The translations under genes and the position numbers were made by a program. Shown here piece after piece: positions 22,868 through 64,000 of a stretch of DNA of 64,000 nt. The stretch lies in NCBI GenBank assembly GCA_004764695.1, contig SMSO01000033.1, positions 558,001 to 622,000 on the forward strand. The letters run 5' to 3'. A model generated the notes under the pieces. That model saw nothing but the letters and a program-made list of their open reading frames with translations, searched no databases and was not told where the DNA came from. The stretch's first letter is position 1, and each line of letters opens with the position of its first letter. The stretch comes from Schizochytrium sp. TIO01. Its lineage: Eukaryota > Protista > Bigyra: Labyrinthulomycetes.

Positions 22868-25800
22868 ATGGGTACTATGAAAAAGCTTTTCTGTGCTCCC
22901 GGTAGCGGGGCATCTTTGTCTCGCAACAAGGTGGAGACTGCCCCTGCCCCTACCCCAGCTGTTATTGAGCCAGGTGCTGATGCTGCTGATGAAACCCCCG
23001 AGGTTGTCGAGGCCAACGTCGGGGCCCGTGCCAGTCTTCGCAAATCTCTTTCAAAGAAGATTGGCTTGGACAGCATCGGTGGCGGCGAGAACCCTGCCGG
23101 AGATCGCTCTTCCAAGCGACTCTCTTCTCGTCTTTCTGGCCGCGGATCTCTTCGTGCTGCGTCTACTGTGATGGCATTTCCGAACTTTGAAGAGACTGTG
23201 AACCACGCTATCAACGGCATTGTGGTCCTCAATATGACCTACGAGCGCCCGTACGAGGGTGGCGGACGCGGCTGTGGTGGAGCTACAGGCTTTGTTGTCG
23301 ACAAAAAGTTGGGAATCATCCTTACTAACCGCCACGTCGTAACTGGTGCGCCAATGCGCGCAGTCGCAACCTTTCAGAGCAAGGAAGAAGTTGAACTTAC
23401 TCCAATCTACTCTGACCCCATCCATGACTTTGGATTCTTTCGTTTTGACCCGTCTGAGGTCAAGTATCAAGAGCTCGTGGAAATCCCACTCGCCCCAGAA
23501 CGTGCCAAGATTGGCACTGACATTCGCGTCTGCGGTAACGACAACGGCGAAAAGCTGGCCATTCTCAGTGGTACACTAGCTCGTCTTGACCGCAACGCAC
23601 CCATGTATGGAGGCCCGTACTCTGATCATAACACATTTTACCTCTCGGCTGCCTCAAACACCTCCGGAGGATCGTCGGGCTCTCCCGTCCTCGACAGTGA
23701 TGGTTATGCTGTAGGCCTTAATGCTGGAGGTGCATTCTTTGCTGCCTCAAGCTTTTACCTCCCCCTAGACCGTGTTGTTCGCACCTTCAAGTACATCCAG
23801 AAGGGTGAACTTCCTCCGCGCCGAACGATCCAGACAATTTTTGTGCATCAGTCTTTCGTGGAGGTAGAACGCCTCGGTCTTCCAGATAAGGAGCAGGCAG
23901 CCTTCCGCAAGAGCTTCCCGAAGTCGTCTGGTTTACTCACAGTTGACGAAGTCATTCCAGAGAGTCAGGCAGAGGCTTTGGGGCTAAAGCCTGGAGATGT
24001 ACTCATTCGCATGAATGGGAAGCGGATTTGTGATTTTGTTTCCTTTGAGGAAATCATTGACTCTAGCGAGCAAGTCACGCTCAACCTGCGCCGTGGAACT
24101 GAGGACATTGAGGTCAACCTTGACACTGAGGACCTGCATACGATGATGGCCACTGATCTCCTGGAGATCTCCAATGGTGCTCTTCACACTCTTTCCTATA
24201 TGCAAGCTGTTGCATCCCACCGCGCTGTTGGTGGTGTTATTCTTGCGCAGACTGGCTACATGTTTGACCGAGCCATGGTCCCGAGTAACATTGTCATCAA
24301 GGCGGTTGGTGACCAGCCTACGCCAGATCTCGAATCCTTCGCTCGTGCCATGGATAAGCTTAATGACCTTGACAAGGTTAGTATCACTTTCACAAGTGTC
24401 ATGGACAAGCACCGCAAGCAGGTTCGACCAATCCAGATTGAACGCCGCTGGTTCCCCTGGGTTCGTCGTGAGCGTACCTTCGAGGAGGGAGCCTGGGAGT
24501 GGAAGGAGCGCGCCTGGATCACGGAAGACGGTATCGAGGATGATACACCTGCACCGAAAAAGAAGGTTGATAACGGACCTCGCAAGGTCCAAGTGCTTGA
24601 TGAGGAGGACCCTCGCCTCTGTGTAGTTACCTTTCAGGCACCCATCCCTATCTCTGAAGTCATGTCGAACTCCTACATTGGCTGCGGTGTAATCATCGAT
24701 ACGAAAGAGGGTCTAGTGATCTGTGACCGTAACACTGTTCCTTCCACACTTGGTAATGTTTCTGTGACAATTGCCGGCACTGTGGAACTTGAAGCGAAGG
24801 TATTGTTTGTGCACCCAATGCACAACCTTGCTTTAATTCAGTACGATTCCAACAAGGTTGAGGTTGAGCTTGGTGAGAGTGAGGCTGCCACCCGTGGTCT
24901 CGGACTCGAGGCCGCAGAGCCGTCCCCAGAGGAGCTCAAAAGCGGTTCGGTGACGAAGCTGGTTGGCTTTACTGGTCAGATGCAGCAGGTCTCGCAAAAG
25001 GTCACCGTTACGGTTGTAAAGCATGTTCAATCTGGCACTGCAAACATGGACAACATGGGTGATTTCTTCCTCTTCTTTGGTGGTGGTTCCAACTTCTCTG
25101 GCGGTGCCAAGAACCAAATTACTATTGAGATAGATAACAACAACCTCGACAACGTTGGTGGAGTTTTGCTTGACGACGAAGGCCGCGTTCAGGCATTCTG
25201 GTTCGATTTCTGGGGATACAAGATGGGTGTACCAGCGTCTATTGTCTACGACGCAGTTGCCCGCTTTCGGGCTGGAGAACCTCTTCGCAGTCTTGCCTGT
25301 GAGCTTGGCACCATCCCGCTTTCCAAGGCCGCCTCTGCGCTTGGTCTCACCGATGAGTGGGTGGCTGAGTTTAGCCAGAGCTCGAAGAACCGCCATGTTC
25401 TCTCCGTTTCGACTGTTATGATTGGCTCCAAGTCCGATGGTAAACTTGAGCCTGGTGACATCATTTTGGCTATTGATGACCAGCCTATGGTAGACTACCG
25501 TGCTGTGGAGCAGGCAACCGCTGACAAAGATCAGGTCACCGTGACTGTACTTCGTGACCTGGCTGAGGAGGCGATTACCATTGATACTACAGAGCTTCCT
25601 TATGACGGCTGTACTCGTGTGGTTCTTTGGGCTGGTGCTATTCTTCAATCTGCTCCGCTTGACCTTGCTTTCCGTGGATTCCTTCCTGAGGGTTCTCAGG
25701 GCAAGGGTGTCATGTGCTCAGGTTTATACGGTGGTTCCCCTGCAAACCAGTACGGTTTGCGTACACAGGTATTCGTGACTGCAATCAACGAATTTCCCAC

Positions 25801-25981
25801 TCCCGACCTTGATTCCTTCGCAGAGGCTGTGAAGGATCTCCCTGATGACGAGTTCATTCGTGTCCATACCATGACATTTGACGGGGTCCAAGATGTCACA
25901 CCTCTCAAGCTTGATAACCTTTACTGGGAAAAACGTGAGCTTAACTACGACGAGGATACTTACAGTTGGGAATACGTATAA
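22868..25981 (+). CDS. NMA111: Nma111/DEG7-type HtrA serine protease with duplicated protease-PDZ architecture
   Basis: Triad motifs LTNRHVV, DPIHDFGF, NTSGGSSGSPV; GNDNGEKLAIL; second degenerate protease domain (FVHPMHNLA); PDZ domains; C-terminal LKLDNLYW. Confidence 0.9.
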   Translation: MGTMKKLFCAPGSGASLSRNKVETAPAPTPAVIEPGADAADETPEVVEANVGARASLRKSLSKKIGLDSIGGGENPAGDRSSKRLSSRLSGRGSLRAASTVMAFPNFEETVNHAINGIVVLNMTYERPYEGGGRGCGGATGFVVDKKLGIILTNRHVVTGAPMRAVATFQSKEEVELTPIYSDPIHDFGFFRFDPSEVKYQELVEIPLAPERAKIGTDIRVCGNDNGEKLAILSGTLARLDRNAPMYGGPYSDHNTFYLSAASNTSGGSSGSPVLDSDGYAVGLNAGGAFFAASSFYLPLDRVVRTFKYIQKGELPPRRTIQTIFVHQSFVEVERLGLPDKEQAAFRKSFPKSSGLLTVDEVIPESQAEALGLKPGDVLIRMNGKRICDFVSFEEIIDSSEQVTLNLRRGTEDIEVNLDTEDLHTMMATDLLEISNGALHTLSYMQAVASHRAVGGVILAQTGYMFDRAMVPSNIVIKAVGDQPTPDLESFARAMDKLNDLDKVSITFTSVMDKHRKQVRPIQIERRWFPWVRRERTFEEGAWEWKERAWITEDGIEDDTPAPKKKVDNGPRKVQVLDEEDPRLCVVTFQAPIPISEVMSNSYIGCGVIIDTKEGLVICDRNTVPSTLGNVSVTIAGTVELEAKVLFVHPMHNLALIQYDSNKVEVELGESEAATRGLGLEAAEPSPEELKSGSVTKLVGFTGQMQQVSQKVTVTVVKHVQSGTANMDNMGDFFLFFGGGSNFSGGAKNQITIEIDNNNLDNVGGVLLDDEGRVQAFWFDFWGYKMGVPASIVYDAVARFRAGEPLRSLACELGTIPLSKAASALGLTDEWVAEFSQSSKNRHVLSVSTVMIGSKSDGKLEPGDIILAIDDQPMVDYRAVEQATADKDQVTVTVLRDLAEEAITIDTTELPYDGCTRVVLWAGAILQSAPLDLAFRGFLPEGSQGKGVMCSGLYGGSPANQYGLRTQVFVTAINEFPTPDLDSFAEAVKDLPDDEFIRVHTMTFDGVQDVTPLKLDNLYWEKRELNYDEDTYSWEYV

Positions 25982-28013: not shown

Positions 28014-31000
28014 TTAAACAAGGGCGTCCTCTTCTAATTCCATCTTTGTGCAAAGAAAAGCAAGATATAAATCAGGCCCAGTGCAATTGCTATCACATGA
28101 AAGGTCTGAAGTGGTATCGATGCCAAAACATCGCTCTCTAAGAGTATCCCTTCGTGATGTAATTCGACCAATAGACATGGTCCATGTGTCATCAAGGCTT
28201 GCAACACCTGCATAACCTCCGAACATCCATAAGGTGTCTCCATGCACCGCGATTGCGGCACCAGTGCGTGGGACAGGTACTGAGTTCTGGTCTTCAAGAG
28301 TAATTACAGTTCTTGTGCCAGAATATACATCGAGCGAGCTAAGGGGTGCAGTATGAAATGAGTCAAACATCAAAATTCTACCCAAATTCAGCATGGGAAC
28401 TACTATCTCTGTGTCTCGAAATGCATCCATGCTGACTTCCCCGCGTTGATCCCAATTATTTGTTTGGATATTATATACCCACAGGTCATTGCGCAAACCT
28501 TCATTAGGGTCTTTGCCACCAAAAATGTAGATCGCCCCATTCAGCGCGAAGCTAGAATGACTATAGCGCGCAGGAGGACCACTAGTGATGTTTGTGAGGT
28601 TGGTCCAGCTTGGTTTGGGCTCACAAGGATGGATTTCTAACTCGAGTTGCCATGAAAGAATGCCCCCAGAAGTCAATTGGTCCATTTCTTCGTCTGCACT
28701 ATATATAGACCAACCCTCAGGATTGTACAAAACACCTTCGTACACAGATATTGGGGATGAAGGGCGGTAAGTTCCGCTTGTTTGAAACGCGAAAGCTTCT
28801 CGTAATGTTGAAGACGCATCATCATTTAAAGTGAGCTGCACTGTCTTATTGCTGTTAGGATTGCAGCTTGGGCGCGCGCTACTATCGCGATCAAAGACAA
28901 GTATACCAAGGGTATCATCCACGTTTCTAGCCTCGTATCCAGCCCCCCTGAGCCATATGCGAAGTGAATTCGGACATGGGTGATCGATGACCAAGGTAAG
29001 TTGTCTCACCCTGTTAATACATAAACTACCTGATTCCATGGAATCAATTAGAGAGCCCTCTGTTTCTACTCCTGGGGAGGGTAGTAATGCACCTTCCCGA
29101 AAATCTGCGAAATATACTGGAGAAGCGCTTTCTATTACCACATTGCTTGATTGCGTTGGATCATAAACATAAAAGCTGTTTAATGAGCTTCCCCTCCAAT
29201 CTTCACTCAACGAACTTTGAGACAGTGAGCTTTTGATTGTAAAGGAAGATATACGACCAGTTGTAGGATTGCGTGTAATACTAGGGGTTTCTCCCTGTTC
29301 ATTGGTCTGTGACACCTTTTCGAGATTTAAGCCGCCAAATATGTACAGGTAGTTGTTCCACTGCACGGCCGAGTGCAAGCCTCTACCTTCCGGTAGGGTG
29401 GTTTCTGAGAAACGGGTCTCGATTGTCCAAACCTTAGCATCCGGATCATAAACCCAAAGCTCATTAGACGAGCGTCGACCTTGAACACATTTTGCAGTTC
29501 GAGCTTCCCCTGGCAGCTCGCACGAAAAGCCATCGGTGTAACCTCCAAACAGGTAGATTCTGCCATTTTCGAGCCGAGTGGCACTGTGCCCGTGGCGAGG
29601 CATCCAACGCGCATTCTCGAGTGACATTTCAGATATGTCATCATTCGCTCGCCCACTGCCACTGGCAGGATCATCAGACCATGGTGTAGACAATAAGCGT
29701 GCATCGATATCACTACTAGTACGGAAGCGTGCTTCGATAGGCATGGCGAACGGTCGAAATGGAACACTAGACCATGCTGGGTATGGTGTTTCCTTAGTTC
29801 GTACCATTAAACTATTCCCAACCATTTCTGGGCCTTCTCGAGGTGATACTGCACGGATTCTTATGGAATAAAGGGTATCCGCTGTGAGTCCCTTGAGTAC
29901 TGTTTGGTTTACGTCATCAATATTCTTGATAACTTTGAAATCTTCGTTTCCAATACCAGTTGATGCCTCAATTAAATACCCTGCGCCACTTTGTTTGCTC
30001 CATTGCAAAGTAATACTAGAATGATTCTTGTCAGCTACCCATATTTTAGGGGCGATGTAGCCATACTCAACAGCCTCAGCTTGGTTTCTTGAAAGCATCA
30101 GATATGCCGAGTTTGCAAATGAGCTTCCTCCACCGCCACCAGCTCCTTCAACTCCACTGCCGCCTCCACCGCCGCCAAAGTACCCTCCTCCACCTCCACC
30201 TCCACCTTCAAATCCTCCTGCCCCATCGCCACCAAAGTTATGTCCTCCATTTGATGCAGACGTTGCCGGTGTTGCCAGAATTGAGGCAAGACTTCCACTT
30301 TGCCCTCCTTGTCCACCAAGAATGGTGGAACCTGCGAAACCAGGAACTGCAAGGATAGAATAGTCAGCAAGTGGAGCATGGCCTATATCTTTGTTATTGT
30401 GATCAGCAAAGAGTCTTGTGTTTGGGTCTACATCATCGAGGCCTAAAAGAACCAGGCTTGAGTCTGGCGTTGAGCCACTTTGATGCGCATCCCCACCATT
30501 TGCACAACAATAGTCTGAACCACCAGCGCCTCCACCTCCTGCGGCAGTGAGAATTGGTGTATCCATAGATGAGTGTAATAAAATGGAGCTTGCTCCACCT
30601 CCACCAGCACCATGTCGCAGAACACCTTTTCCGCCAGATCCACCTCCGTTCCAGCCGCCTTGGCCTTGTGACCCCCCAGCATGGCCACCGCCACCAACCC
30701 GCACGTGTAGTGCGCCAGTAAGAATTTGCTTTGATAATGTAGCTTGCAGAAATGCGCCAGCTCCGCCATGCGCTGTCTCTGGGCTCATACCAGTGCTACC
30801 TCCACCAGCGCCCCATAATTTTACCTCTAGAGAATCAATAAGCGGGTCATTTGGTATTTCATAGACTTCCGTTGAGCCTGTATAAAAGAAAAGCTTAGCA
30901 GGCCAAAAAGACTCTGCAATTCCACTTCCCTGTAATGAACGAGGGCGAATACTCACTAAGCCCGGTCCTCCTGCGAAACCATATTGTTCGCTTCCAATCC

Positions 31001-33038
31001 CCCCAGTGTTCAATCCACCGCCAACGCCAACGCCATTGACATACTGAGGGTCATCCGCATGTGGGGCACTTCCATTGACACCAATATCAAGAATAATATT
31101 GGCTAGCGCGCGAGATCGTGCGTCGAGTAGATCTAAGTTTGGTGGAGCATCAACAAGAGTTTCTGGAGACATTTCAGTCCGAATTGGACCTACAGGATCA
31201 GTCCATGATCCTGCACTCTGCCTTCCAGAATCAGTATCAATGTGAATTTCGCGCATTCGGAAAGCGTACCATGTGTATGGTTTTAGGCCGTTCACTGTAG
31301 CATTAAGGTACTCAGACTGGGGTGCATAACGTGGTAATATACCATTTTTAATGGTTGAAACTGCCACAGGGCCACCAGGGCCAGACCAATAGCCATCAGA
31401 GTCTCGAGATATGCTTTCAGAGATGACAACAAGCGGTGGTTGATCCCCTTGATGATATATTGAGTTAAAGACAATGGTGTATGTATATCCATGTTCTGTA
31501 GTCCGAGAGCTCCGTGTGACAGATTTCGCGGTAATGCCAAGACCAGACAATGCAGTGCGTAGTGCTGAAGCAGATATATCGTACGGGAGTGCAGAAGTTG
31601 GAGACCGAGTGTCTCGAAAAGCAAGTGTAAAAGAACCCCCGTTTATTACACCTGAGCCGGGATCAATTCGAGTAGTAATAGTTTGGACTTCTGCTTGGCC
31701 AGCATAGTATGGCGGCTGACCTTCCATGTTGACATAAGACCAGAGGCTATTATCTCCATCGAGAAATTCGGTAGACCTTCGACCATCTTTCAATTCTCGT
31801 GCTTGCATTTGAAACTCCAAAACTCGGTCGTGGTTTTGCGCCCAAGTTACAAGGATGCTTTCTGGACCACTGGGATTAACACTTAGCTCAATGTCACTGC
31901 GAGATTTCTCTGCAGTATGAATTGTCTTCGTTGTGGTATGTGTTGCATCTTGACCTGGAACTAATGCTCGGACTAAGTAATCAGTATCAGCTTCTAAATT
32001 ACCAGCAACGAAGTCCGAGGAATCTCCAGATGTTGCACGAGGAAGAGTTTGCCAGACCCCAGCGCTCATCTGAATTTGTATTTTTGCCCCCTCAGGAGCA
32101 CCTTGTAGTTGAACCCGAAAATAGTCTTCGGCAATACTTATGACCTGAATATTACTAGCAGTTGCGAGTTTTCGCCCCCCCGGGATCGATATTGTTCGAG
32201 ACGGATTAGAGTAGTGTGACCATACCAAAGTCCCGCGAAGGTCGCGAACCAGTGCTCGTACACGATACAAGTAGACTTTGTAAGGCTCAACAGAAGAATC
32301 ATCGAAGAAGCATTTGTCCTTGTAGGGATCGCGTTTATCTGGGTTGTTCAAGCAGGCAAATGACGATGTTCGACCAGGACGAATTTCAGAAACCCCAACC
32401 GTGCGAATTTGGCTTCCAAGAAAGCTCGCATCTAGCGTGCTTGCGACAACTTGTAAGGCTGGATAAGCTTCGCCTGCGTCCATGAAGGTAACTGTCCATT
32501 GATAGCCGCCTTGAGCGTCTGGTCCAGAGCGTTTTACCTGAACACTTTCGATATTACCAAGACTTTCGAGTGCATTCACGATCTCTCCTTCTGAAGCACT
32601 ATAACTGATCCATGGCGTTGTAGATGGGCTTTCAGGATCTGCATCGAAGAGTCCATCCTTCTGCATCGAGAGGCGGAAGAATCCCGATGTAATTGATTGT
32701 CCCTCATCTGCACGAGTCTCAATTAGCTGGACCTCCCTTGGCTTTGCTTCATTGGTTGCCATAACTCGCCCAACCTCGGCCCATGATGAGCCTAATTCTG
32801 CCCTTTCTACAGCAAAACCTTCACCGTTAAAAATAGATTCTTCTGATGCCAGCCAATGGACTTTCACAATCTTCTTGTTCTCAGCCAACTCAGTGGTTGA
32901 AGATGTTGACAAATCTACCTCAATGTCCATGAGAGCCTCAGCGAGCCGCATATTCCACGAAAAGGCTAGCATCGCTGCTATCAAGACGCGCAACGCGAGT
33001 CCCATCCCGCCGCATCTGGGCCTCGCCATGGCGGGCAA
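28014..33038 (-). CDS. Secreted multidomain protein: FN3 repeats, ALK/LTK-type glycine-rich domain, Kelch repeats, P-domain-like insert (1674 aa)
   Basis: Signal peptide; FN3 motifs (GLKPYTWYAFRMR, GLTADTLYSIRIRA); FYTG...VKLWGAGGG...GGGGGASSI Gly-rich domain; Kelch motifs PRHGHSA, IYLFGG, ARYSHS; IDHPCPNSLRIWL...GGILSWQLEL P-domain-like. Confidence 0.85.
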   Translation of the reverse strand: MPAMARPRCGGMGLALRVLIAAMLAFSWNMRLAEALMDIEVDLSTSSTTELAENKKIVKVHWLASEESIFNGEGFAVERAELGSSWAEVGRVMATNEAKPREVQLIETRADEGQSITSGFFRLSMQKDGLFDADPESPSTTPWISYSASEGEIVNALESLGNIESVQVKRSGPDAQGGYQWTVTFMDAGEAYPALQVVASTLDASFLGSQIRTVGVSEIRPGRTSSFACLNNPDKRDPYKDKCFFDDSSVEPYKVYLYRVRALVRDLRGTLVWSHYSNPSRTISIPGGRKLATASNIQVISIAEDYFRVQLQGAPEGAKIQIQMSAGVWQTLPRATSGDSSDFVAGNLEADTDYLVRALVPGQDATHTTTKTIHTAEKSRSDIELSVNPSGPESILVTWAQNHDRVLEFQMQARELKDGRRSTEFLDGDNSLWSYVNMEGQPPYYAGQAEVQTITTRIDPGSGVINGGSFTLAFRDTRSPTSALPYDISASALRTALSGLGITAKSVTRSSRTTEHGYTYTIVFNSIYHQGDQPPLVVISESISRDSDGYWSGPGGPVAVSTIKNGILPRYAPQSEYLNATVNGLKPYTWYAFRMREIHIDTDSGRQSAGSWTDPVGPIRTEMSPETLVDAPPNLDLLDARSRALANIILDIGVNGSAPHADDPQYVNGVGVGGGLNTGGIGSEQYGFAGGPGLVSIRPRSLQGSGIAESFWPAKLFFYTGSTEVYEIPNDPLIDSLEVKLWGAGGGSTGMSPETAHGGAGAFLQATLSKQILTGALHVRVGGGGHAGGSQGQGGWNGGGSGGKGVLRHGAGGGGASSILLHSSMDTPILTAAGGGGAGGSDYCCANGGDAHQSGSTPDSSLVLLGLDDVDPNTRLFADHNNKDIGHAPLADYSILAVPGFAGSTILGGQGGQSGSLASILATPATSASNGGHNFGGDGAGGFEGGGGGGGGYFGGGGGGSGVEGAGGGGGSSFANSAYLMLSRNQAEAVEYGYIAPKIWVADKNHSSITLQWSKQSGAGYLIEASTGIGNEDFKVIKNIDDVNQTVLKGLTADTLYSIRIRAVSPREGPEMVGNSLMVRTKETPYPAWSSVPFRPFAMPIEARFRTSSDIDARLLSTPWSDDPASGSGRANDDISEMSLENARWMPRHGHSATRLENGRIYLFGGYTDGFSCELPGEARTAKCVQGRRSSNELWVYDPDAKVWTIETRFSETTLPEGRGLHSAVQWNNYLYIFGGLNLEKVSQTNEQGETPSITRNPTTGRISSFTIKSSLSQSSLSEDWRGSSLNSFYVYDPTQSSNVVIESASPVYFADFREGALLPSPGVETEGSLIDSMESGSLCINRVRQLTLVIDHPCPNSLRIWLRGAGYEARNVDDTLGILVFDRDSSARPSCNPNSNKTVQLTLNDDASSTLREAFAFQTSGTYRPSSPISVYEGVLYNPEGWSIYSADEEMDQLTSGGILSWQLELEIHPCEPKPSWTNLTNITSGPPARYSHSSFALNGAIYIFGGKDPNEGLRNDLWVYNIQTNNWDQRGEVSMDAFRDTEIVVPMLNLGRILMFDSFHTAPLSSLDVYSGTRTVITLEDQNSVPVPRTGAAIAVHGDTLWMFGGYAGVASLDDTWTMSIGRITSRRDTLRERCFGIDTTSDLSCDSNCTGPDLYLAFLCTKMELEEDALV

Positions 33039-49349: not shown

Positions 49350-50764
49350 ATGTTCGGCCCCCTCGGTAGCATCCAGGCCCGCGTGGCCGTCGAGAAGGAG
49401 CACAAGCCCGTGCGTGCCCTCTCCGTCGCTCAGCCCGTCAAGGCCATGAGCGCCCACGAGCAGGGCCCCTTCGACCTCATGTACTTCGTCAAGGGTGCCT
49501 TCTCCGGTGTAAGTTAATCTTGAACCAAGTATCTATGAACCTGAACACATAGATCCAGTTCACGTTTTTACGTGCTAGCTTTAGTCGTTGAACTGTGTTT
49601 TTAATCCTAGACGACCTACTTGGCCATACTCTTAGTTTCCAGCAAGCGCCGGCTTGGTTTTTAAGTCTATACTATTATGGGCGGGACTAAAGTTTGGGCA
49701 TGGATCTTTTTGTGACCAGGATCTATATCATCTTGTTGTTGTCGATCAAATTTATACTAACTGCATTTCACTTCAAATCGTGTTGAATTACGTTACGTAT
49801 GTTCAATGGATTCCTTTCATTAATTCTAATCGTTGACATTGCGAATCTTCAATGCACTTTATGATGACTATTTCTAATCTTACAGGGTGTCTGCTGTGGT
49901 ATCACCCACGGTTCCCTCTGCCCCGTCGATGTCGTCAAGACCCGCATGCAGCTCGAGCCCACCAAGTACACCGGCATGATCTCTGGCTTCCGCAAGGTCA
50001 TCGCTGAGGAGGGCATGGGTGCTCTTGCCACTGGTCTCGGACCCACCGTTGTCGGCTACTTCATCCAGGGCTGGTTCAAGTTCGGTGGTGTCGAGTTCTT
50101 CAAGATCCAGCAGGCTTCTTACTTCGGTGTTGAGAAGGCCTGGGAGTACCGTTTCCCCATCTACCTTTCCTCTGCCGCCATGGCCGAGTTCATTGCTGAT
50201 ATCTTCCTCTGCCCCCTCGAGGCCACCCGCATCAAGCTCGTGTCCAACCCCAGCTACGCTTCCGGTCTTATCACTGCCTTCCCCAAGGTTATTGCTGACG
50301 AGGGCTTCTTCGCTGGCTTCTACTCTGGTTTCGTCCCCATCCTCTTCAAGCAGATCCCCTACACCATGGCTAAGTTCGCTGTCCAGGGTGCCGCCCAGGA
50401 GAAGATGTGCAACGTGTCTGGCATCGACCTCGCCACCGCCTCTGACTCTACCAAGGTTTCCCTCTCCCTCGCTTCTGGTGTGATTGCCGGTGTTGCCGCT
50501 GCCATCATCTCCCACCCCGCTGATACTCTCCTCTCCGTCATCAACAAGCCTGGTGCTGGTGGCAAGGGCTCCATGGTTGTCCGCCTCGGCCGCGTCGCCG
50601 CCGAGATGGGCCTCGTCAAGCTCTGCCTCGTTGGTCTCCCGGCCCGTTGCGTCATGATCGGTACCCTCACCGCCGGTCAGTTCGCCATCTTCGACTCCGT
50701 CATGGCTGTCACCGGTGCCGAGAAGTTCCACTTCGTCGACCCCGCCGACTTGGAGCAGAAGTAA
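49350..50764 (+). CDS. MIR1: Mitochondrial phosphate carrier (SLC25A3/MIR1/PIC2 family), two exons (49350-49508, 49886-50764)
   Basis: Exon 1 ends YFVKGAFSG at GTAAGT; exon 2 starts GVCCGITHGSLCPVDVVKTRMQ. Motifs GYFIQGWFKFGG, AEFIADIFLCPLEATRI, KQIPYTMAKF, SHPADTLLS, MIGTLTAGQF. Strong C-ending codon bias. Confidence 0.92.
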
Positions 50765-52000: not shown

Positions 52001-53923
52001 TCACTCAGCGCAGCAGGAGTGTTTTTCCCCAACTTCTATCTTGTCTTGCTGCTGGACAACCTTGTGCTTAGCTGCAGTGGGAGTATCATCGATTTCCTCA
52101 GCAAATTGGCAACAAGGGTCAGCAGCCTGGCCCTTGGTAGAGCGTAAGTTCATGTTGAAAATAACATGTCCAGCAGCAAGGCCGAGTACCACAGCGATGA
52201 AGAGAAACGCCGAATATGTCATGATGATTAGCATAGCGAAATAACCATTCGTGACCTGGAGAATGTACATGGAGATGTACACTGAATAATTTGCAGGGGT
52301 TGACCAACGATCTTGGAGTACCTTGAGGTGGTAACGGCGAGCCCAGATCACAAATTCAACAAAAATGGCAAAAGCAAAGCTTCCGAGAAATCCAACAGCC
52401 ATCTTCCAGCGAGTATCCAAGGTCCACTTGCGGAAAAGAATATTGACACAATAATCGTCAGGGTCAATGCTGGACTGAAAGCCAGACATGTACATGACAG
52501 TGCCGTAACCATTACAAATAGATCCAGATTTAGTAGTAGTTGAGGTTGACGAAGAGTTAGATGTGCTATTGCCCGAGAGAGTGTCCGGGCAAGTCAGGGT
52601 GCACTCAGTACAGTGGGAGTCACCAAGTTCCCAAACTTCACCTGTCTCAGAGTTTGCGCATACAGCATCATCAGCAGTTGAGCTGGAGGTGCATCCATCA
52701 CCGGTTGCAATCTCCATGCAGCTCATCCAACAGTATGCTTCACCTGTGCCACAACTGGTTGCGAGGTCACGAGCCATCATATGGGGAGATTGGGCATTTG
52801 AAGAATACTCATTCGAGTATGAGCAACCGGCGCCAAATGAGTCTTTTTGGTGGGTTACTGCAGCAACACGGATTTTATCCTCCTCGCCATATGACAACTT
52901 TGAGCGCTCGTTTACGGCACTCTTCGGCTGTAAGAACATACGACCATACCATGCACGCATGATATTGTCGCCAAGCTCACAGGAAGGTTGCATCACCATT
53001 GCGTGCGGGACAGGGCGCATGGGCATGCATTTGTGACCAAACTCAGTCATTCCCTGACCCATCATAAAGAAGATAACATCACCTTCCTCTGCCAATGCGG
53101 GGCGCCCAATCTCGCCTTCAGAGCTTTCAACAAGAAAGCCCATGCCGGGCTTCGCAGAGACCTCATTGGCAGTTGAGGTGTCGTAATAAGCAGAGGGCAG
53201 AAGAGCAATGAACAAACCGACATCGGTGTGAAGGTCAAGCGCCGCAAGACCACTCTTCATCTTTGTGCTACTGCAGTTAGCTTGGTAAGCATGATAGTGC
53301 TCCAGATGAGATCCGCTTGTAAGGAATGATTGCATTGACGGGTAGTGGTCAACGCCATTGATGTGGCGCGCAAAAATTTCGCCAGCAGTGCGAGTGCCGC
53401 AAAGAGCATCGAGTTGAGCAAAAACCATAGTTGACACGCGAGTTACAAGCTCGCGAACGGCTGTGGAAGTCGCCTCGAACTGCTTGCACTCTTCCGAGAG
53501 CTCTTCGTCAGAAATGCCGAGGTGCTGCTTCATGCTTGTTTCGTAGCGTTGACCGTGCTCAATAATGCTCGCAAAGGTGTGGCGAACAGTCTCGTCAGCA
53601 AGAACGGCAGTCTTGACTTTGTCTGCTGTCATCATGCATTTGACCATCTCATGAAACATTTTCTTGCGAAGGGTCTTGAGACGGGGTACTTGGGTCACCT
53701 GAAACATGCCTTCTCGGACCACAGCTTTACGAATAGAGCTGCCATCGACATCAGTGAGGAGACTCTCGAAAGAAACCTCCTCAACCGGAACGGACTCTAC
53801 AAAGGAAGATTCATAGCCACTCAAGTGCTGAGCAGAGGTCCCTGGGATCAGGGTAGCCACGAAGAGCACAGCCGAGAGCAGTAGCAAAAGCTGCGTGGCC
53901 ACGTTCTTAGCAGCCAGCGACAT
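52001..53923 (-). CDS. Ctr copper transporter with large N-terminal extracellular 2OG-Fe(II) oxygenase-like and Cys-rich domains
   Basis: Signal peptide; LDLHTDVGLF (HxD), PVPHAM, RAWYGRM; CGTGEAYCWMSCM Cys-rich linker. Ctr motifs MYMSGF, ILFRKWTLDT, GYFAMLIIMTY (MxxxM), GLAAG (GxxxG); C-terminal PCC and HSCC. Confidence 0.85.
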   Translation of the reverse strand: MSLAAKNVATQLLLLLSAVLFVATLIPGTSAQHLSGYESSFVESVPVEEVSFESLLTDVDGSSIRKAVVREGMFQVTQVPRLKTLRKKMFHEMVKCMMTADKVKTAVLADETVRHTFASIIEHGQRYETSMKQHLGISDEELSEECKQFEATSTAVRELVTRVSTMVFAQLDALCGTRTAGEIFARHINGVDHYPSMQSFLTSGSHLEHYHAYQANCSSTKMKSGLAALDLHTDVGLFIALLPSAYYDTSTANEVSAKPGMGFLVESSEGEIGRPALAEEGDVIFFMMGQGMTEFGHKCMPMRPVPHAMVMQPSCELGDNIMRAWYGRMFLQPKSAVNERSKLSYGEEDKIRVAAVTHQKDSFGAGCSYSNEYSSNAQSPHMMARDLATSCGTGEAYCWMSCMEIATGDGCTSSSTADDAVCANSETGEVWELGDSHCTECTLTCPDTLSGNSTSNSSSTSTTTKSGSICNGYGTVMYMSGFQSSIDPDDYCVNILFRKWTLDTRWKMAVGFLGSFAFAIFVEFVIWARRYHLKVLQDRWSTPANYSVYISMYILQVTNGYFAMLIIMTYSAFLFIAVVLGLAAGHVIFNMNLRSTKGQAADPCCQFAEEIDDTPTAAKHKVVQQQDKIEVGEKHSCCAE

Positions 53924-54891: not shown

Positions 54892-55990
54892 AGGATGCGC
54901 AGCACTTTGCTAAGTCTTTCAGGGAACGGAGCCCATGAAAACCAATCAAGTTTCTTTTTCTTTTTAAAGTCCTGTTTTTAAAAAATGCCAAGATCTGTCT
55001 GTGCCACTCTGTAACCCTACGAAGCGGGATTTGCTGCCAAACAATGTTGTGTCGAAAACCATAGGTTTTGGCAACTTCAAGTCTTCATTTTGAACTAAAA
55101 CTTTTCCTAGCATGCCGTCTGAAAAGCGATTGATCATGACAGGGGCAAGCTTGGACGCACAGATTCACTGTAGTATACGCAGTGCAAAGTATGAACTTCA
55201 TGGCCGCTTTGAATGGTCGATTTTATTGCGCATCGCTGGTCAAGGTGATGGCATCGTTTCAGACTTGCTTGAATAAAAACCAATTCAGAAAGAAGTTTTT
55301 ATTTATTTATAAAGTTATACCTTAGTAGTGTAGTAATAGGCAGGTACTACTATTATTCCCATGCCTAATTTCGTTACCATATCTGAAAGAAGTTATGCTA
55401 ATCTTTTTCATAGTAAGACTCTAGTGATTCAAAGTTAAACTGCGATGGGTCACCCGCATGTACGTCGCTTAACTTGGAGTATCTAATAATTCATTCTCGT
55501 AGTTAGGTAATACTAACTTCGATGTAATTCGAAATGATCGAAACTGAGTGAACGTGGCCTTGAATAGTTATTCGCTAAATCGTGAAAGCACAAGCTGTGG
55601 TTCAAGAAGTATAGGTTCAGTTTTCTAAAGCTGGTCGTAGTTCAATTTGATTTAATGATAACCCCATCTTATGAAATTGAAAGCTCTATGGACTAGATTG
55701 AATATATTTGCAACCTACGGTATTATTGAAGTAAGAGGATTGTGATGTATTCTAATTTGTAGGCTGATGGCCATGCAGCAAATACAACTTGTGGGCTATG
55801 TAACACACAGGTGTGTGATACCTACGCTTTTGAATAAAATACCAAATTGATGGATACCTTCGATGCTACCAAAAATATTTGCAAAGTTTAAATCGAACAG
55901 GGAATGGTACTCCAACTTTAAGATCAGTGTCAGTCTACCTTGACAGTGACCACCAGCAGAAGGAATTTAAAAGGACAACGTTTTTGCCAA

Positions 55991-57145
55991 TTAACTCTTA
56001 GATTCGGGATTCAATACATAGCTAAGAAAACCTGTGATAGGGATAGCATTAGCGTTCTTCCCTGGGGCGATACTCAGGAAGTCTGAAATGATTGCGATTT
56101 CATCAGGTGACAAATCAAGACCCGCGTCCAAAAGAGCATACTTAAATTCAACTCTGTCCAGCATGTCATCATGTGCTTTGTCGTAGCTCCTGACATGATC
56201 CTCAAACTCTGAGGGTGTTGCTGAAACAATAGATGCAATATAGTCAAATACTGCATCTGAAGAAAGTTCTTGGCAGCTATCATATGTGTTCTCATAGTCT
56301 GGGGTTTCTGCGAGCTCAACAATCCATTCATTTCTCTCAAGAACCGGCACACGCTGATCAGCGATATGAGTCCCGCGTGCCTCTCGTTTTAGGACATGCA
56401 CCCGACGAGTAGGTTTGTGTAAGCAACAAAACGCATCAAGCTCCGGTCCATAATCATTGTACACAACAGAAGACGCGTCCATTGCGAGGGATTTACCTGA
56501 AGCGCAATGAATGAATTGAATGGGGTGTCCACTTGAAATGCGGAGGTCTGCTCCAAGAGGCGATGGTTGAGCTTGAAGTTCTTCAATACGCCATCGCATG
56601 TTACTTAGATCTTTCTTAGCCACTGGCTCACAAGTGACGCGTACTTCTTGCTCACCTGAGCGGCTTGTACTCCCCAAAACACTTGCCGGTGCAGACATGA
56701 CGTAGAGCTGCTTCTGGCAAAGTCCTGTGGCAGCGCTTGTGCGAAGCGCCGGTGCTGTAAGCAACAAAACCTCGTCTCCCAATTCGACAAACTCTTTCTG
56801 GCTAGAACCTGGGGCAGGCTGAATCATAAAGGATGTGCGCAAACTCTGCTCATTCACACCAGATGCCTGGTAAGCCCGTGGCTCTTTCTCGACAGAAAGG
56901 TTCCCTGCAAAATACTTCTCAGTAGCGCAGTGCTTGAGGGCGATGAAGTCTCCATATCTCAGTAGTCCATCCTCGTGGTAAGAAATCTGCGCAGGCAAGG
57001 AACCTGCAACATTTGCTGCTCGAACTTGATCAATAAGACGTTCTCCTAGCCGAGCTTTATGCTGCACTGATTTCTTGCGAATCTCGGAAAGTGCTTTGTC
57101 TTCATTCCAGTTGCCAATAAGGACTTTCTTGTTGTACCCGCTCAT
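55991..57145 (-). CDS. CFAP161: CFAP161-like flagellar protein with C-terminal EF-hand
   Basis: YNKKVLIGNWNED, DGLLRYGDFIAL, FIHCASGKSL, NDYGPE, NEW motifs; EF-hand-like YDKAHDDMLDRVEFKYAL. First ATG at 57145. Confidence 0.75.
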   Translation of the reverse strand: MSGYNKKVLIGNWNEDKALSEIRKKSVQHKARLGERLIDQVRAANVAGSLPAQISYHEDGLLRYGDFIALKHCATEKYFAGNLSVEKEPRAYQASGVNEQSLRTSFMIQPAPGSSQKEFVELGDEVLLLTAPALRTSAATGLCQKQLYVMSAPASVLGSTSRSGEQEVRVTCEPVAKKDLSNMRWRIEELQAQPSPLGADLRISSGHPIQFIHCASGKSLAMDASSVVYNDYGPELDAFCCLHKPTRRVHVLKREARGTHIADQRVPVLERNEWIVELAETPDYENTYDSCQELSSDAVFDYIASIVSATPSEFEDHVRSYDKAHDDMLDRVEFKYALLDAGLDLSPDEIAIISDFLSIAPGKNANAIPITGFLSYVLNPESKS

Positions 57146-58235
57146 CTTGCTATGCACCACGCCGACCTAGTTTCGATTCCTGATTGTTGGCTGTGCTCTC
57201 AAATTTGTGACTCTGTCTCTTTGCTGAGTGCGGATGCAACAAAATTCCCGGAAGCTTATCAATATTTAAAATGTCGCGCAGTCGAGCAAGCCAACTTGGT
57301 TTGATACGCAACTTGGTTGTTTTATTGACACCATATACTTGATGCTGCTCTAGTTTGCATACGGAGTGCGTAACATTATTAGAAAAGTCATAGCAAATTT
57401 GATTTTGTATTCCATCTTGGCTAAGATAATTCATACTTCAAATACTAGGATTCTATTTTGGAAAAAAAGTATGATAAGATGGAGAAAAAGAAACAACAAG
57501 AACCTCGTCTGACCGGTGTGCCCCAATCCTTTATTAGTTGTAGAATGTAAACGGCCGGTAATTATTTATTTCCTCTAAATTTTACAATGCATATTTTTGG
57601 ATGACATGCAACGCATAGAAAGCCCCGCCGGCATAATTCTCTATTTTTGAAGAAAAGAGAAGAAAAAACAAAAATTGATCCGTTGAAATTACTATCAGGG
57701 AGGTGTGTACCTTGACGAATTAAGCTGACCACCTTTTCATTGACAACGGGACCAGCAACCAATTAGAACAGAAAAGCATGGTTCGAAGAGACAAGCAAGA
57801 TAAACGTGCTTTTGGTCAGGTATGGTGTTCTCTGTAGGTACAGTTTCCAATTTGCATTATCTAGTACCAAAAACAAAAAAACGTTCATAGCAAAACTACT
57901 AGTTGTACTTTTGGGAAAAGGACGAAGTCGTTGTACACGTGCGTATCCGTGGTTGTCAACAATTACTTGTATCAGGACACAAACCAAAAAAATTAAAAGA
58001 AAAAAATTAGGACATTAAGTGCTTGTCTCAGATATCATAGTGCCGGTGTAATGGTGAAGGTGCACGTTGGTGTTGAAAGACACGCTCACAATTAAGCCAT
58101 TGTCAAAGCTCTTCGAAAGTCTCGAGCTCCACTGTCTTGCTTTGCTACGACCACGTAAGACCTTGGTATTTCCCCCCTTGTGCAAGTCGAGCTTGAGAAG
58201 CTTATTGCACCAAAGATACCAGGTCCGCCTGCGTG

Positions 58236-60776
58236 ATGGATCTCCAGTATGGACGAGCTCCGCCTGGAGAGCGCAAGGTGGACTGGGTACGCGAAAAGCT
58301 TCTGGTGCCACGGCGAGAGCGAGGTCTTAAGCCGTTGCTGGCAGGCTACAAGAATGACGAGGATGATGAGGAGCGAATTGTAAGAGAGGCAGAGGCAGCG
58401 AATTCTCGTCTCAAAGCTAGCGGCCTAGATCGATGTCCGACAGGGAGGCTGCCAGGACTTGGCACGCTCAAGTCTGAGAAGGTGTTGCTCAAGCAGCAAA
58501 AAGTCGAAGCCGAAGCTGAGGCTGCAGAGCGCAAAAGAAATGCGGAAAAGGTATTCGTAGAGTGGCTGAAGAGGAAACAGGAATCAGGAGAAACGTATGA
58601 TGCAGCTGCAGAAGAACAAAAGCTCAAGAAAGCTGAGCAACAACGTACAGCTGAGCGTAAAAGGCTGGCTGAACAGAAATTCACAGAGTGGAAAGCAAAG
58701 AAGGATCGTGAGCGGCGAGAGCGTCGCAAACAAGAGGACGAAGCTCGTGCAGCAGTCCTTGCAGAAATGCTCGCGATGGGACCTAATCAAAGCTCTACCA
58801 CGGAAACAAAATCACCTACTTCGCAGAGCGCAAAATCCTCAGTTGAATTAGCTGCAAATTTGGAAATGAATCAATCTAAGAATAATCAAGACGAATCCGA
58901 AGGGTCGCCTTGTATTGATCCAGCACTACCCCCACAAGCGAGGAGCCCAATTAATGGTGTACCCAACTTGAAGCAATCAGATATGAAATGGGCGCGCGTT
59001 TATTTAGACAAGCCAATTCCCCGACCGCCCCCACAAGCAGGAGCTGCAGCATCGCCTCAGAATGGGGAACGCACATTACTAAGGCAATGCCTTCAGCGGC
59101 TCTCTCGCTGGTTGGCCAAGCCACAGTACCGATTCGACTTTGAAGACGCTTTACACCGTGCAGATCAAATCGGTAATGGGCAACTTACTGAGGAGCTCGA
59201 ATACTCTATTTTGCACGAATGCGGATTTAAAATCGGAGCCTATGAGCATAAGCTTTTGCACAGACATATTGAAAACCATTTTCATGGTCAGTGCCAACGC
59301 CTGGTTAAACATCTGATTAAAAAACGAGAACAAAGGGAGAAAGTGAGTGCAGAAACAAAGAAAAAGCACTCTGCTGTTTCCAGAGCAAATTTAAGCACAA
59401 GGGGCGCTTCGTCCCGTGGCCCAGGCGGTAGAAAGCGCCGGCCAAGTGCTGCACGGCGAAAAGCTGCTGCGCGGCGTGTTGTTCATGCAATGAACTGCGA
59501 ATCTGTTGAAGGTCTTCAAGATATTCTCCAGAGAGCAGCTTCAAATGCAGCTCAAGCAGTGGCAAATCCTAATGACCTCAGAGCCAATCTTGATTCTTTC
59601 CTGGCGGAGACCGAGCTTCGAGACATGAGTGAACTTCTCGATAAAGATCTAAATTTACTCTGTAACTTGTTCATGGAGGACGAGTTTCGACAACTTCCAA
59701 AGTCAACGTATGGCTTACTCGTATACTTGGGAGAAATTGCAGATGTGCAAGCTACTTCAGCGGGTGAAGATGGCTTGCAAGTCCAAATTACAGAAGATGT
59801 GCGGCAACCACTTCAGGCTTTGTTTCAAAGCATAAGTGACAACCCTACTCGAGCTTGTGTTGCAAACCTTTTAACGAATTGCCATGAAATGAAAGCTATC
59901 AAGGGGACCGTCTTGGTTGAGCTCTTAACTACTCACGGTGCTTCATTTATTGAGTCACTTGAATTGCAAACGATGTCTGAAACAAATAGCAAATCATCAG
60001 ATGCAAATAAAAACAGGAGTGGGGACGATTCTTCGAAAGTAATGGAAGGCCTTGTACCTGAAGAAGAATTTGTAAATTATTTCTACACCAAGTATGAGCA
60101 ATACCAAAGAGAAAGTATGGCCAAACAAAGCCCGACTATGTGTCCGACAAGCACGCGTCCCCATACCTCACGTACTCGCTCACGCCAAGGAAAACCTCAA
60201 CGTCACCGCACTAGTTCTTCACCGAGTCGAATTCGACTCGTAAAGCCACCCCGTTACTTGCAGGAAGCAAAAGCAGAACGTGATCGTAATGTGAAAGAAG
60301 CATACACTTCAGGAGAAGAACAATATATACAGGAGCGTCACAAACCTAGGGATTCTTATGTAGCTCAGCAAACAGTGCATGAACATGCAAAGAGTGCGGC
60401 GAAGAGTCTTGGTTCAGTTACCTCTGTCCAGGTTGTAGAAGTGCTTAATCTTGAGAAGCCTTCGAAAGAAATCATGCAGACAGTTGGGGCTGCATGCTTG
60501 CTGGTCGGCTTTACTCCAACTTGGAAACACGCTCGCGCTCTGTTTAAGCACTGGCCGAATTTTCTTGCTTTTGCTTCAAGTGTGACCACAACCCACGTGC
60601 CTACTCTTGACGAAGAAACAATGAATAAACTTGCGAAAGCCGTCGCACCACTTTCTGGAGAAGTCCCTCGTTTGGTGGTTGTACTGCACAAATGGGTTGC
60701 TGCTATGCACTCACTTTTGAAAATGCGAGCTGACATTAAATCCCCCAAACCCTCAGATGTAGTGCAAATTCCTTGA
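58236..60776 (+). CDS. Hypothetical coiled-coil protein (about 846 aa)
   Basis: Long ORF with repeated F(V/T)EW(L/K)xxK coiled-coil motifs, a degenerate EF-hand-like ADQIGNGQL segment and a helical C-terminal region (LEKPSKEIMQTVGAACLL...TWKHA) reminiscent of dynein-stalk-like modules. No confident family. Confidence 0.7.
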   Translation: MDLQYGRAPPGERKVDWVREKLLVPRRERGLKPLLAGYKNDEDDEERIVREAEAANSRLKASGLDRCPTGRLPGLGTLKSEKVLLKQQKVEAEAEAAERKRNAEKVFVEWLKRKQESGETYDAAAEEQKLKKAEQQRTAERKRLAEQKFTEWKAKKDRERRERRKQEDEARAAVLAEMLAMGPNQSSTTETKSPTSQSAKSSVELAANLEMNQSKNNQDESEGSPCIDPALPPQARSPINGVPNLKQSDMKWARVYLDKPIPRPPPQAGAAASPQNGERTLLRQCLQRLSRWLAKPQYRFDFEDALHRADQIGNGQLTEELEYSILHECGFKIGAYEHKLLHRHIENHFHGQCQRLVKHLIKKREQREKVSAETKKKHSAVSRANLSTRGASSRGPGGRKRRPSAARRKAAARRVVHAMNCESVEGLQDILQRAASNAAQAVANPNDLRANLDSFLAETELRDMSELLDKDLNLLCNLFMEDEFRQLPKSTYGLLVYLGEIADVQATSAGEDGLQVQITEDVRQPLQALFQSISDNPTRACVANLLTNCHEMKAIKGTVLVELLTTHGASFIESLELQTMSETNSKSSDANKNRSGDDSSKVMEGLVPEEEFVNYFYTKYEQYQRESMAKQSPTMCPTSTRPHTSRTRSRQGKPQRHRTSSSPSRIRLVKPPRYLQEAKAERDRNVKEAYTSGEEQYIQERHKPRDSYVAQQTVHEHAKSAAKSLGSVTSVQVVEVLNLEKPSKEIMQTVGAACLLVGFTPTWKHARALFKHWPNFLAFASSVTTTHVPTLDEETMNKLAKAVAPLSGEVPRLVVVLHKWVAAMHSLLKMRADIKSPKPSDVVQIP

Positions 60777-61610
60777 TCACCACATAATTCACTGATATAC
60801 AGATTTAACCATTGATACGCCAAAGATAAAATGAAATCTTTTTGTTCACTAGGGTATTTTACAACATTTTGCTAATCTAGTTCATTGCATTTGCACCATT
60901 ATGGCTGCAGATCTTGCCCTTCAACCAAATCCGGTCAGGTTTGTTGAAATGATTTTCCCCATATCTATATCACTGAAATGGGGACACATCATATCAGTCT
61001 TTAAAGTCTCTTAATAGACCATTTTATTCGGCTCTTCCCATTGGGAAATCGGGGTGAACTTTTGCTCTTTCTTCGCGCAGCAGCAAATCCGCAATCGATC
61101 AATCAATTGTTTGACTGATAGAGAATCGTGGGCTCGACGACATTGACGGTCGAGTCTGCAAGCTATTGCTCAGGGTGAGGCAAGTTGGCGAGCAGTAGTC
61201 ATTTTGGAGAGTCACAGCTGCTAGACTGCTCGACGGCGATCCTCTGAAGAGAAGATCAGCAGCTCTCCTAGATATATCTCCGTTGCGAACTGCCAAGGTC
61301 CCAGCCGTGCATATACTTAAGTATTCTCTTCTACATAGGTGCCAACAATTACAAATCACCCATTTGTTTAATTATTGTTGTAGCTACTCGATCTTCACAG
61401 TTTGTCAGAAGCCCCTGACTTTTTCAAAAAAAAAAAAAAATCAACAACAGCAGACAGAATCTTTGGTTATTCGGAGACCTTCTAGCTTCCTCCCTCAAAG
61501 GGACTCAGTGTATTGGTTTTCTCAAGCTTTCGCTTGCTGTGTTGTCTAAAAAGAAGGCAATACACCGTTGTATCTCTAAGGTTAACTGGCCTTCGCGTTA
61601 GCTCCGCACC

Positions 61611-64000
61611 ATGGATGATAACGACGCTCTCACACCAGAAACCAAGCCATCTGACCCTGCCAGCTCGCGGAAACGTCAGCGTCCCGGCGAAAGCTATGCT
61701 TCAACTTCGCCGTCTTCGGCCGATACAGTAGCCGAAGCATTTGGGAAGCCACATGTGGCCAGGCGCCACGAGCTTGGTTACGGCACCCCTGCCCTGGACC
61801 CTTATACTAGCATTCCAGAAGACGAGGACGATGAAACTGACGCCACTAATGCATCATCACATTTGCCAGGAGACTCAAATCGAGGCCAGCCGCAAAGCCT
61901 GGCAGAAGCAGAGCCCGTAGAACATGCACGAAGGCTTTACGAGAGCGTTCAAGGAGAGGATATTTTGGTACTTGAGGAGGTGCTCTCGACGTTGGACTCT
62001 TGTAAGCAGGTTTACGACCTTGAACATGTCGAATGGCTTATCACCTTGTGCCGGCGTGGAGAAGACCAACGCTTAGAAAGGATCCAGGAGGAAGCTATGC
62101 GACTTGTTGATGGGTGGGCGCGTAACTTACAAACATATATTCCTGCCGATGGTGTTCCAGTTCCAGACCCTCTGCGCGACGAGCTAATCGATAGTGCAGT
62201 CACGTTCTTGGAGGACGAACAAGTCAAAGATAGATCTGTCGATGAAAAGGTACAATTCTTGTTAGATAAAGGCTTGAATCGAACTGAAATTCGGATTGCG
62301 TGTGCTCAGGTTGGTGTGGAACCACCTAGCTCATTGCTATATTCGGAACCACTGCGCCATGAAATGGTAAAGAACGGTGCATCATTTTTAACAATTGATG
62401 ATGTGAAGGACAAACCTCTAGCGGAAAAACTGTCTTTTCTCAAATCCAAGGGCTTAGCCGATGGTGAGATCATGCGCGCCTGCGAACTTGCACGTCTGGA
62501 TCCGCTTCCTACACCTGAGGACTTGAAAGGCCTTCATGAATACCAGGAGCGCGCACCTCGTGAAGATATGGTTAAAAATGGCGCCATTTTCCTCAATCAC
62601 AAGTCAATGGCTTCAAAAACATTGCGTGAGAAGCTTGAATTCCTTAAAACTAAAGGTATGACTGCGACCGAAGTAGCCAAGGCATGCGAACGAGCAAAAG
62701 TGGATCTCCCTAGTGATCTTCGGAAAGAGTTCGCTGCTTCCACAACGACTACCACAGAAGGAGGTCGTGGCACCGGTGGTGGTAGCGACGGCTCCAAGGT
62801 AAATGAGGCGTCATCTGGCAATGCAAAATCTGGTAGATCGTCTGCTGAAGATGGCACCCCAGAGTCAGTTCGTAGTGAGATGGTTCAAAAAGGTGTTACA
62901 TTTTTGTCCCATCCTTCAGTTGTAAGCAAGCCTGTTGTCGAAAAGCTCGCATTCCTTCGGGAAAAATCTTTGACCGAAGCTGAAATCAAGCAGGCTTGCA
63001 AAGAAACGAACGTGGCATATATTGCTGGAACCGTTGGACTCTCGCAGGAGAATGTAAGAAAGGCAGTTGCATTTCTGCGTCATCCGAGTGCTCAGGGTCG
63101 TCCTTTACAGGAAAAAATAAGTTATCTTCGCTCAAAAGGCCTCTCTACAGAGGAAATTGAAGCAGCCTGTCGTCAAGTTGGTGTCCGATCAGCTGGTATT
63201 GGCATGTCCTATACCAATGCTGAATTAAACGAACCCTTTGAGGACGTCTCGGAGGAAGATGATCGTGACTCCTCTTCTAAAACTCCCAAGACACTTACAA
63301 ATGAAGAGGTAGAATCAATGCGACGTGTGCGACAAGGCCAACGCTTTCTGCTTCATGAAAAGACTCAAAAACTTGAGAATCGAGACAAAGTAAGCTTTTT
63401 GCTTGGAAAAGGCCTCTCCTTAGACGAAATTGAATCCTGTTTCGCGGTGGTTGGCCTGCCATGGGACGAAGAAGAAATGAAATCTGTGAAGCCCGAAGAT
63501 CAGTCTAAAGCGCGCATGGAGCGGGCTGAGCGATTTCTAGAAGATCAGCGAGAAAAGGTTCCTGAAGACGAAACATTTGATGCACAAAAACAGGCTCTGT
63601 TTCTTTGTCAACAAGGAATCCCCGAAAAGGAGCTTTCAAGAGTCTTTGAAAAGCTAGGCTTAGAATTGGATACCTCAAAACTTGATGAAGACATGGTTAA
63701 TATCGGTCGAACATTTGCTCAGAAGGCTGGCACGGGAGCAAAAGCTCGGAATTTCTTACAGAAAGAGAAGAATCTCTCTGAAGATCAAATTAATCGTGCC
63801 TTTCAAGGTCTCGAGAATAATCCAGTTGAGCTTGCTCGCCGGTTCCTTACAAGCTCTCAGGCTGCAAGAGAACCTCTTGCTGAACGCATCAACTACTTAC
63901 GGCAGCATCAAAATCTTTCAGATGAGCACATCCGTGAAGCCTTACAGCTAGCTGGTCTTGAAGCAACTGAACAAGACTTTCAAGATCCTGCAACTGTCGA
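61611..64000 (+). CDS. Protein with a tandem array of at least nine Pex14 N-terminal-like domains; 3' end outside window
   Basis: Manual translation from ATG 61611 (in-frame TAG at 61599) is open to the window end (796 codons). Repeats such as LRDELIDSAVTFLEDEQVKDRSVDEKVQFLLDKGLNRTEI and QENVRKAVAFLRHPSAQGRPLQEKISYLRSKGLSTEEIEAA. Confidence 0.88.
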   Translation, partial: MDDNDALTPETKPSDPASSRKRQRPGESYASTSPSSADTVAEAFGKPHVARRHELGYGTPALDPYTSIPEDEDDETDATNASSHLPGDSNRGQPQSLAEAEPVEHARRLYESVQGEDILVLEEVLSTLDSCKQVYDLEHVEWLITLCRRGEDQRLERIQEEAMRLVDGWARNLQTYIPADGVPVPDPLRDELIDSAVTFLEDEQVKDRSVDEKVQFLLDKGLNRTEIRIACAQVGVEPPSSLLYSEPLRHEMVKNGASFLTIDDVKDKPLAEKLSFLKSKGLADGEIMRACELARLDPLPTPEDLKGLHEYQERAPREDMVKNGAIFLNHKSMASKTLREKLEFLKTKGMTATEVAKACERAKVDLPSDLRKEFAASTTTTTEGGRGTGGGSDGSKVNEASSGNAKSGRSSAEDGTPESVRSEMVQKGVTFLSHPSVVSKPVVEKLAFLREKSLTEAEIKQACKETNVAYIAGTVGLSQENVRKAVAFLRHPSAQGRPLQEKISYLRSKGLSTEEIEAACRQVGVRSAGIGMSYTNAELNEPFEDVSEEDDRDSSSKTPKTLTNEEVESMRRVRQGQRFLLHEKTQKLENRDKVSFLLGKGLSLDEIESCFAVVGLPWDEEEMKSVKPEDQSKARMERAERFLEDQREKVPEDETFDAQKQALFLCQQGIPEKELSRVFEKLGLELDTSKLDEDMVNIGRTFAQKAGTGAKARNFLQKEKNLSEDQINRAFQGLENNPVELARRFLTSSQAAREPLAERINYLRQHQNLSDEHIREALQLAGLEATEQDFQDPATV

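Follow-up and report, generated by a model that had tools for sequence, protein, structure and literature searches.

The array gene and its Pex14_N units

The window, a 64,000-nucleotide stretch of contig SMSO01000033.1 from Schizochytrium sp. TIO01 (positions 558,001 to 622,000), is eukaryotic DNA, poor in introns, and it ends inside a gene whose product carries a tandem array of Pex14_N domains. The reading frame opens with an ATG at 61611 on the forward strand and is stop-free to the end of the window (61611..64000); the default list of open reading frames (ORFs) leaves it out for the sole reason that its 3' end is open. The 796 residues encoded in the window are identical (796/796) to the first 796 of a protein of 1807 residues, P0003, so that the frame indeed runs on beyond the window, as the original prediction had claimed. 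The 3' part of the gene occupies approximately 3.0 kb beyond the window, with the stop at 67032-67034 in window numbering if the gene is intronless. Overall, the product is likely a stramenopile Pex8 equipped with a 13-unit array of Pex14 domains.

The window part of the protein matched the Pfam family Pex14_N (PF04695) with an E-value of 2.4e-64 and 213 bits (cut-off 23.2) in seven stretches, and full-length P0003 gave 11 stretches, counted among 13 units that span residues 188-1038. The units have the three-helix fold of Pex14_N and match human and trypanosome PEX14 structures in phmmer. We mapped them with a hidden Markov model (HMM) built from the units themselves, positioning the two weak ones (7 and 8) by hand. 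This mapping confirmed the nine units first described for the window, and the mapped starts fell within about 15 bases of those proposed. 

All features of the array lie on the forward strand. The protein begins with an acidic, low-complexity N-terminal tail, judged from its sequence as likely disordered (residues 1-94, 61611..61892), which is not in the relatives P0005 and P0008. It is followed by a conserved and probably helical segment of about 90 residues (61893..62171), which has no Pfam match at cut-off and is matched in P0005, P0008, P0009, P0010 and P0015, with the best stretches starting at query positions 101-122. Unit 1 (62172..62318) is the best conserved, with 92% identity to the protein of the thraustochytrid stramenopile Hondaea fermentalgiana (GBG28837.1), 71% to P0005 and 56% to P0008; over the whole window part, the identities are 60% for Hondaea and 40% for P0005. 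The unit HMM placed unit 2 (62349..62495), unit 3 (62556..62699, followed by a 55-residue Gly/Ser/Thr linker), unit 4 (62865..63011) and unit 5 (63039..63182, followed by a 43-residue acidic linker), and both the unit HMM and phmmer supported unit 6 (63312..63455). Units 7 and 8, which had been singled out as more divergent, had scores of 1.3 and 13.2 bits; the 11 remaining units scored 43-67 bits. Unit 7 (63501..63659) is degenerate, with both FL motifs present, a longer loop and Q at the K56 position, and its counterpart in P0005 scored 27 bits; unit 8 (63687..63815), also degenerate, has FA instead of the first FL and a short middle helix, and only its second half was matched. Unit 9 (63810..63956) scored 43 bits. 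Unit 10 starts within the window (63993..64000) and continues beyond it, where units 10-13 occupy residues 795-1038 of P0003.

Across the 13 units, the first FL motif is present in 12, F or Y stands at the position of human F52 in all 13, and K stands at that of K56 in 10. In human PEX14, F52 and K56 are Pex5-binding residues, according to the available text of the report (10.1101/2020.07.23.218024). The kept groove residues fit a predicted binding of WxxxF/Y peptides by the units, and with it the multivalent WxxxF/Y reader that had been suggested. A motif scan of the 1807 residues of P0003 found no WxxxF/Y motif, so that there is no sign of the protein binding itself in this way.

The original prediction also held the expansion to be old. 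Pairwise identity among the 11 well-scoring units is 19-56%, with a median of 33% over 55 pairs. Ten of these 11 units have their closest Hondaea counterpart at the same position (49-92% identity), and position-wise best matching also appeared in P0005 for units 1-6 and 13. This pairing by position with Hondaea shows the expansion to be old, and the array has aged without homogenisation between units. The unit tree has few columns and leaves 23 of its 44 inner branches open, and we relied on it only for the position-wise pairs.

Assembled contigs are a weak guide to the transcript, and they fix neither its start nor its strand. No run is on record as RNA; we guessed the RNA nature of five runs from their gene-shaped contigs of very unequal depth, as opposed to the continuous contigs of DNA runs. 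The contigs of these five runs start at 61093, 61093, 61105, 61115 and 61125, where DNA-run contigs read through, which weakly hints at the rough 5' end of a likely mRNA at 61093..61125 on the forward strand. Four of them reach 3156-3263 bases beyond the window, compared with the 3034 needed to reach the stop, while the contig of the fifth run (X20), starting at 61093, extends further. None has a joint in the aligned part of the array gene. The gene upstream has its own guessed-RNA contig, ending at 60816, and the transcript-like contigs break between the two genes; one DNA run is unbroken from 54898 to 64000. This pattern is consistent with a single intronless mRNA for the array gene. An assembly artefact was ruled out, since at least 95% of the words were present in 20 of the 24 listed runs and a collapsed repeat would not show such divergence between units.

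The predicted C-terminal solenoid and its relatives

Following the array, residues 1039-1807 of P0003 (769 residues, encoded beyond the window) were modeled as a helical solenoid with a predicted local distance difference test score (pLDDT) of 76. In fold searches, this predicted HEAT-type alpha-solenoid matched the solved structure of Pex8, which was its best structural match. By sequence, the C-domain had no match to Pex8 among PDB sequences, Pfam or the atlas, and the atlas search returned only generic helical matches with scores below 0.9. A C-domain alignment search gave no match among 7988 candidates and missed the family's own members too, and it is thus uninformative on stand-alone forms. 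In a metagenome scan with P0005, the sole match (L001) lay in a bacterial-looking gene and was rejected as spurious.

The C-terminus of P0003 is CRL, a putative type 1 signal for peroxisomal targeting (PTS1) as expected for a Pex8; we take this end and those of the relatives to be PTS1-like from the consensus pattern. The pattern of the type 2 signal (PTS2) had no match in P0003. The absence of a transmembrane (TM) segment, first noted for the window part, holds across all 1807 residues, where the highest 19-residue Kyte-Doolittle mean was 1.64, at residue 1581 within the solenoid.

The homolog search, over 1.84 billion representatives, returned 53 hits. Eight distinct full-length proteins are built alike, from several units (2-13), an extended helical stretch and an end resembling a PTS1: P0003, P0004, P0005, P0008, P0011, P0020, P0026 and P0033, which end in CRL, CRL, GKL, ARL, GKL, AKL, AKL and SKL, respectively. 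Thus all eight carry such an end, two of them the weaker GKL, while the pattern was found in none of the other 50 among the 61 collected proteins, many of which are fragments. In leave-one-out HMM comparisons, the C-domains of seven of the eight proved homologous (154-751 bits, shuffles at most 6.1). A candidate for the WWY-type motif, which in Pex8 lies on the last outer helix and serves docking to the RING complex, has its W in register in six of eight relatives and reads A-Y-L in the window protein and in Hondaea, with the register taken from the ends of the aligned ranges. The C-domain of P0033 scored 0.6 bits and was not counted as a proven homolog. With its two units, extended helical stretch, comparable motif in the last helix and SKL end, this EukProt protein is either a very distant family member or an independent fusion. 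Partial relatives were also found: P0002 comprises units only, and P0007 and P0012 have partial C-domains.

Apart from the family, seven proteins (P0014, P0018, P0019, P0024, P0025, P0028 and P0044) have 2-5 Pex14_N units without the Pex8-like domain, and in P0018 a SnoaL domain is joined to four units. Tandem Pex14_N may therefore be a reused module. Ten short hits were looked up (nine with a single unit and one with two), and none of them was named as a labyrinthulomycete protein.

Proposed function and its alternatives

We propose, with a probability of about 0.7, that the protein consists of 13 Pex14_N units and a divergent Pex8, and that it acts in the peroxisome lumen, where it catches Pex5 and delivers it to the Pex2-10-12 export pore. 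The descent of the C-domain from Pex8, taken by itself, is very probable. As the C-terminal part is predicted to be a solenoid with Pex8 as its best match and ends in a PTS1-type signal, the array protein can be assigned to the established cycle of Pex5 import and recycling, and the undescribed pathway with a repurposed module, offered earlier as another option, is not needed. In the proposed cycle, the PTS1 and the contacts with Pex5 would carry the array protein into the lumen. When cargo-loaded Pex5 leaves the pore, several Pex14-type domains would hold its WxxxF/Y motifs simultaneously, forming an avidity trap against back-sliding. The Pex8 part would then take the N-terminal helical bundle of the Pex5 held by the array, while the weak PTS1 of the array protein would compete for the tetratricopeptide repeat groove and aid cargo unloading. 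Finally, the last helices would dock on the RING complex, and the Pex5 N-terminus would be fed into the export pore.

Both Pex5-binding modules would thereby sit on one lumenal chain. As far as the available text of the reports goes, Pex5's N-terminal domain (NTD) binds Pex14 and Pex8 together at separate sites, passing the N-terminal pole of Pex8 (10.1101/2025.08.30.673231). The PEX14 NTD is lumenal by most evidence, binds WxxxF/Y motifs and may prevent back-diffusion (PMC13591263), and its orientation can change (PMC12925559). A stronger version, in which the lumenal half of the Pex14 job has moved onto Pex8 as a soluble ratchet that pulls Pex5 from the pore and chains it to the RING exit, with a membrane PEX14 whose Pex5-binding domain is gone or has become unnecessary, is doubtful.

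The lumenal trap has to be weighed against other roles of the array on a genuine Pex8. The units might bind Pex5 in the cytosol for piggy-back import, serve other aromatic-motif partners (PTS2 co-receptors, Pex13, Pex19 or tubulin), or form a condensate by cross-linking Pex5, most units then being dispensable. The relatives have anywhere from 2 to 13 units, two of the 13 units are degenerate, the Pex8 of fungi and plants functions without such domains, and the PEX14 NTD, in the available text of one report, binds microtubules via the F52/K56 surface too (10.1101/2020.07.23.218024). On the other hand, the conservation of units position by position between species suggests selection on each of them, and the Pex5 NTD is the known partner of both kinds of domain joined in the fusion, which bind it simultaneously. 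We consider these other roles improbable. Slightly harder to uphold is an unrelated alpha-solenoid, derived for example from Utp10/HEATR1 or a karyopherin, in a peroxisomal scaffold, or a sink for Pex5, that is specific to the lineage and without descent from Pex8. It draws on the missing sequence match, on Utp10 lying less than 1 Z unit away for model 1, and on the generic solenoids that top the Foldseek listing; the Pex8 proteins of plant and yeast are themselves mutually undetectable by BLAST. We consider this origin unlikely.

It is far less plausible still that the array protein is the divergent PEX14 of this organism. GBG28837.1 was automatically named 'Peroxisomal membrane protein PEX14', and a separate PEX14 has not been demonstrated in the organism, whose whole genome was not searched. 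However, the Pfam hit alone explains the Hondaea name, and the ordinary single-unit PEX14 proteins from the same search (e.g. P0042 and P0039) have a hydrophobic peak past the unit, whereas here no unit is followed by a TM segment. With 13 units rather than one, and with a PTS1-ended solenoid in place of a coiled-coil or disordered C-region, we rejected the assignment as PEX14.

Gene neighbourhood and comparison with known systems

The gene immediately upstream (58236-60776, +) encodes an 846-residue protein that hits CCDC34 weakly. A stretch of it (residues 416-782) matches the opening 359 residues of GBG28837.1 at 51%, which indicates that the gene order is conserved and that two genes have probably been merged in the GenBank model. 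Further away, a 1294-residue ORF (8113-11997, -) combines leucine-rich-repeat-like units with a Pfam NEL domain (E 1e-20, residues 836-1018) in a eukaryote, a layout which we take to be that of bacterial IpaH/SspH-type E3 ligases. A 1671-residue protein (28014-33029, -) has a signal-like start and fibronectin III, glycine-rich ALK/LTK-like and Kelch domains. No peroxisomal family was found among four other neighbours, namely a trypsin-PDZ protease (22868-25981, +), a mitochondrial carrier (49946-50764, +), a Ctr-domain protein (52001-53923, -) and an MIR/EF-hand cilia-type protein (55991-57145, -).

Recent reviews and papers (2025-26) describe Pex8 in fungi and plants only and ask how broadly it is conserved. 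In their available text, one comparative survey lists PEX8 as fungal (PMC8172628), two do not mention PEX8 for stramenopiles (PMC6203080, PMC7710942), and Pex14 and WxxxF/Y motifs are reported missing from diatoms and haptophytes (PMC6203080). In the literature searched, with most subscription papers outside its scope, Pex8 was reported only from fungi and plants, and neither a protein with tandem Pex14_N domains nor a fusion of this kind turned up. A stramenopile Pex8, if true, would extend Pex8 to a third supergroup; in the stronger version above, its presence in the lineage of stramenopiles, alveolates and Rhizaria would also mean that the last common ancestor of eukaryotes had Pex8 and that animals have lost it. 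The natural fusion may also serve as a 'Rosetta stone' for two debated points: whether the PEX14 NTD holds Pex5 from inside the peroxisome, and how Pex5 is afterwards handed over to Pex8 and the export ligase. With both Pex5-binding modules and a matrix signal on one protein, it predicts that they act in the lumen and on one and the same receptor.

The array protein resembles fungal Pex8 (P. pastoris, PDB 8rqt; S. cerevisiae) and plant Pex8 (At1g73970) in its predicted alpha-solenoid of approximately 770 residues (vs 713 and 803), which matches end to end, in its putative C-terminal PTS1 and a candidate aromatic last-helix motif, and in having no TM segment. It differs in its 13 Pex14_N units and N-terminal leader of about 190 residues, in having Ala where the motif has its first Trp, in the lack of a PTS2-pattern match, and in its stramenopile host. 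With PEX14 (human 2w84, Trypanosoma 5mmc) it shares the three-helix unit, both FL motifs and largely the F52/K56 positions, but the unit is present 13 times instead of once, the array is followed by neither a TM segment nor a coiled coil, and it is joined to another domain. Fungal Pex33 and Pex14-17, as described in the available text of one survey, likewise reuse the Pex14_N domain in a second peroxin; unlike the soluble, multi-unit and Pex8-like array protein, they are PEX14 paralogs of the membrane docking complex (PMC8172628). Hondaea GBG28837.1 is the ortholog, with the same unit order, the same C-domain (72%) and the CRL end; its deposited model differs in opening with about 360 residues of the adjacent upstream gene, probably a gene-model error, and its 'PEX14' label is corrected here. 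The fusion would thus likely unite in one chain two jobs that are split between separate proteins in fungi and plants.
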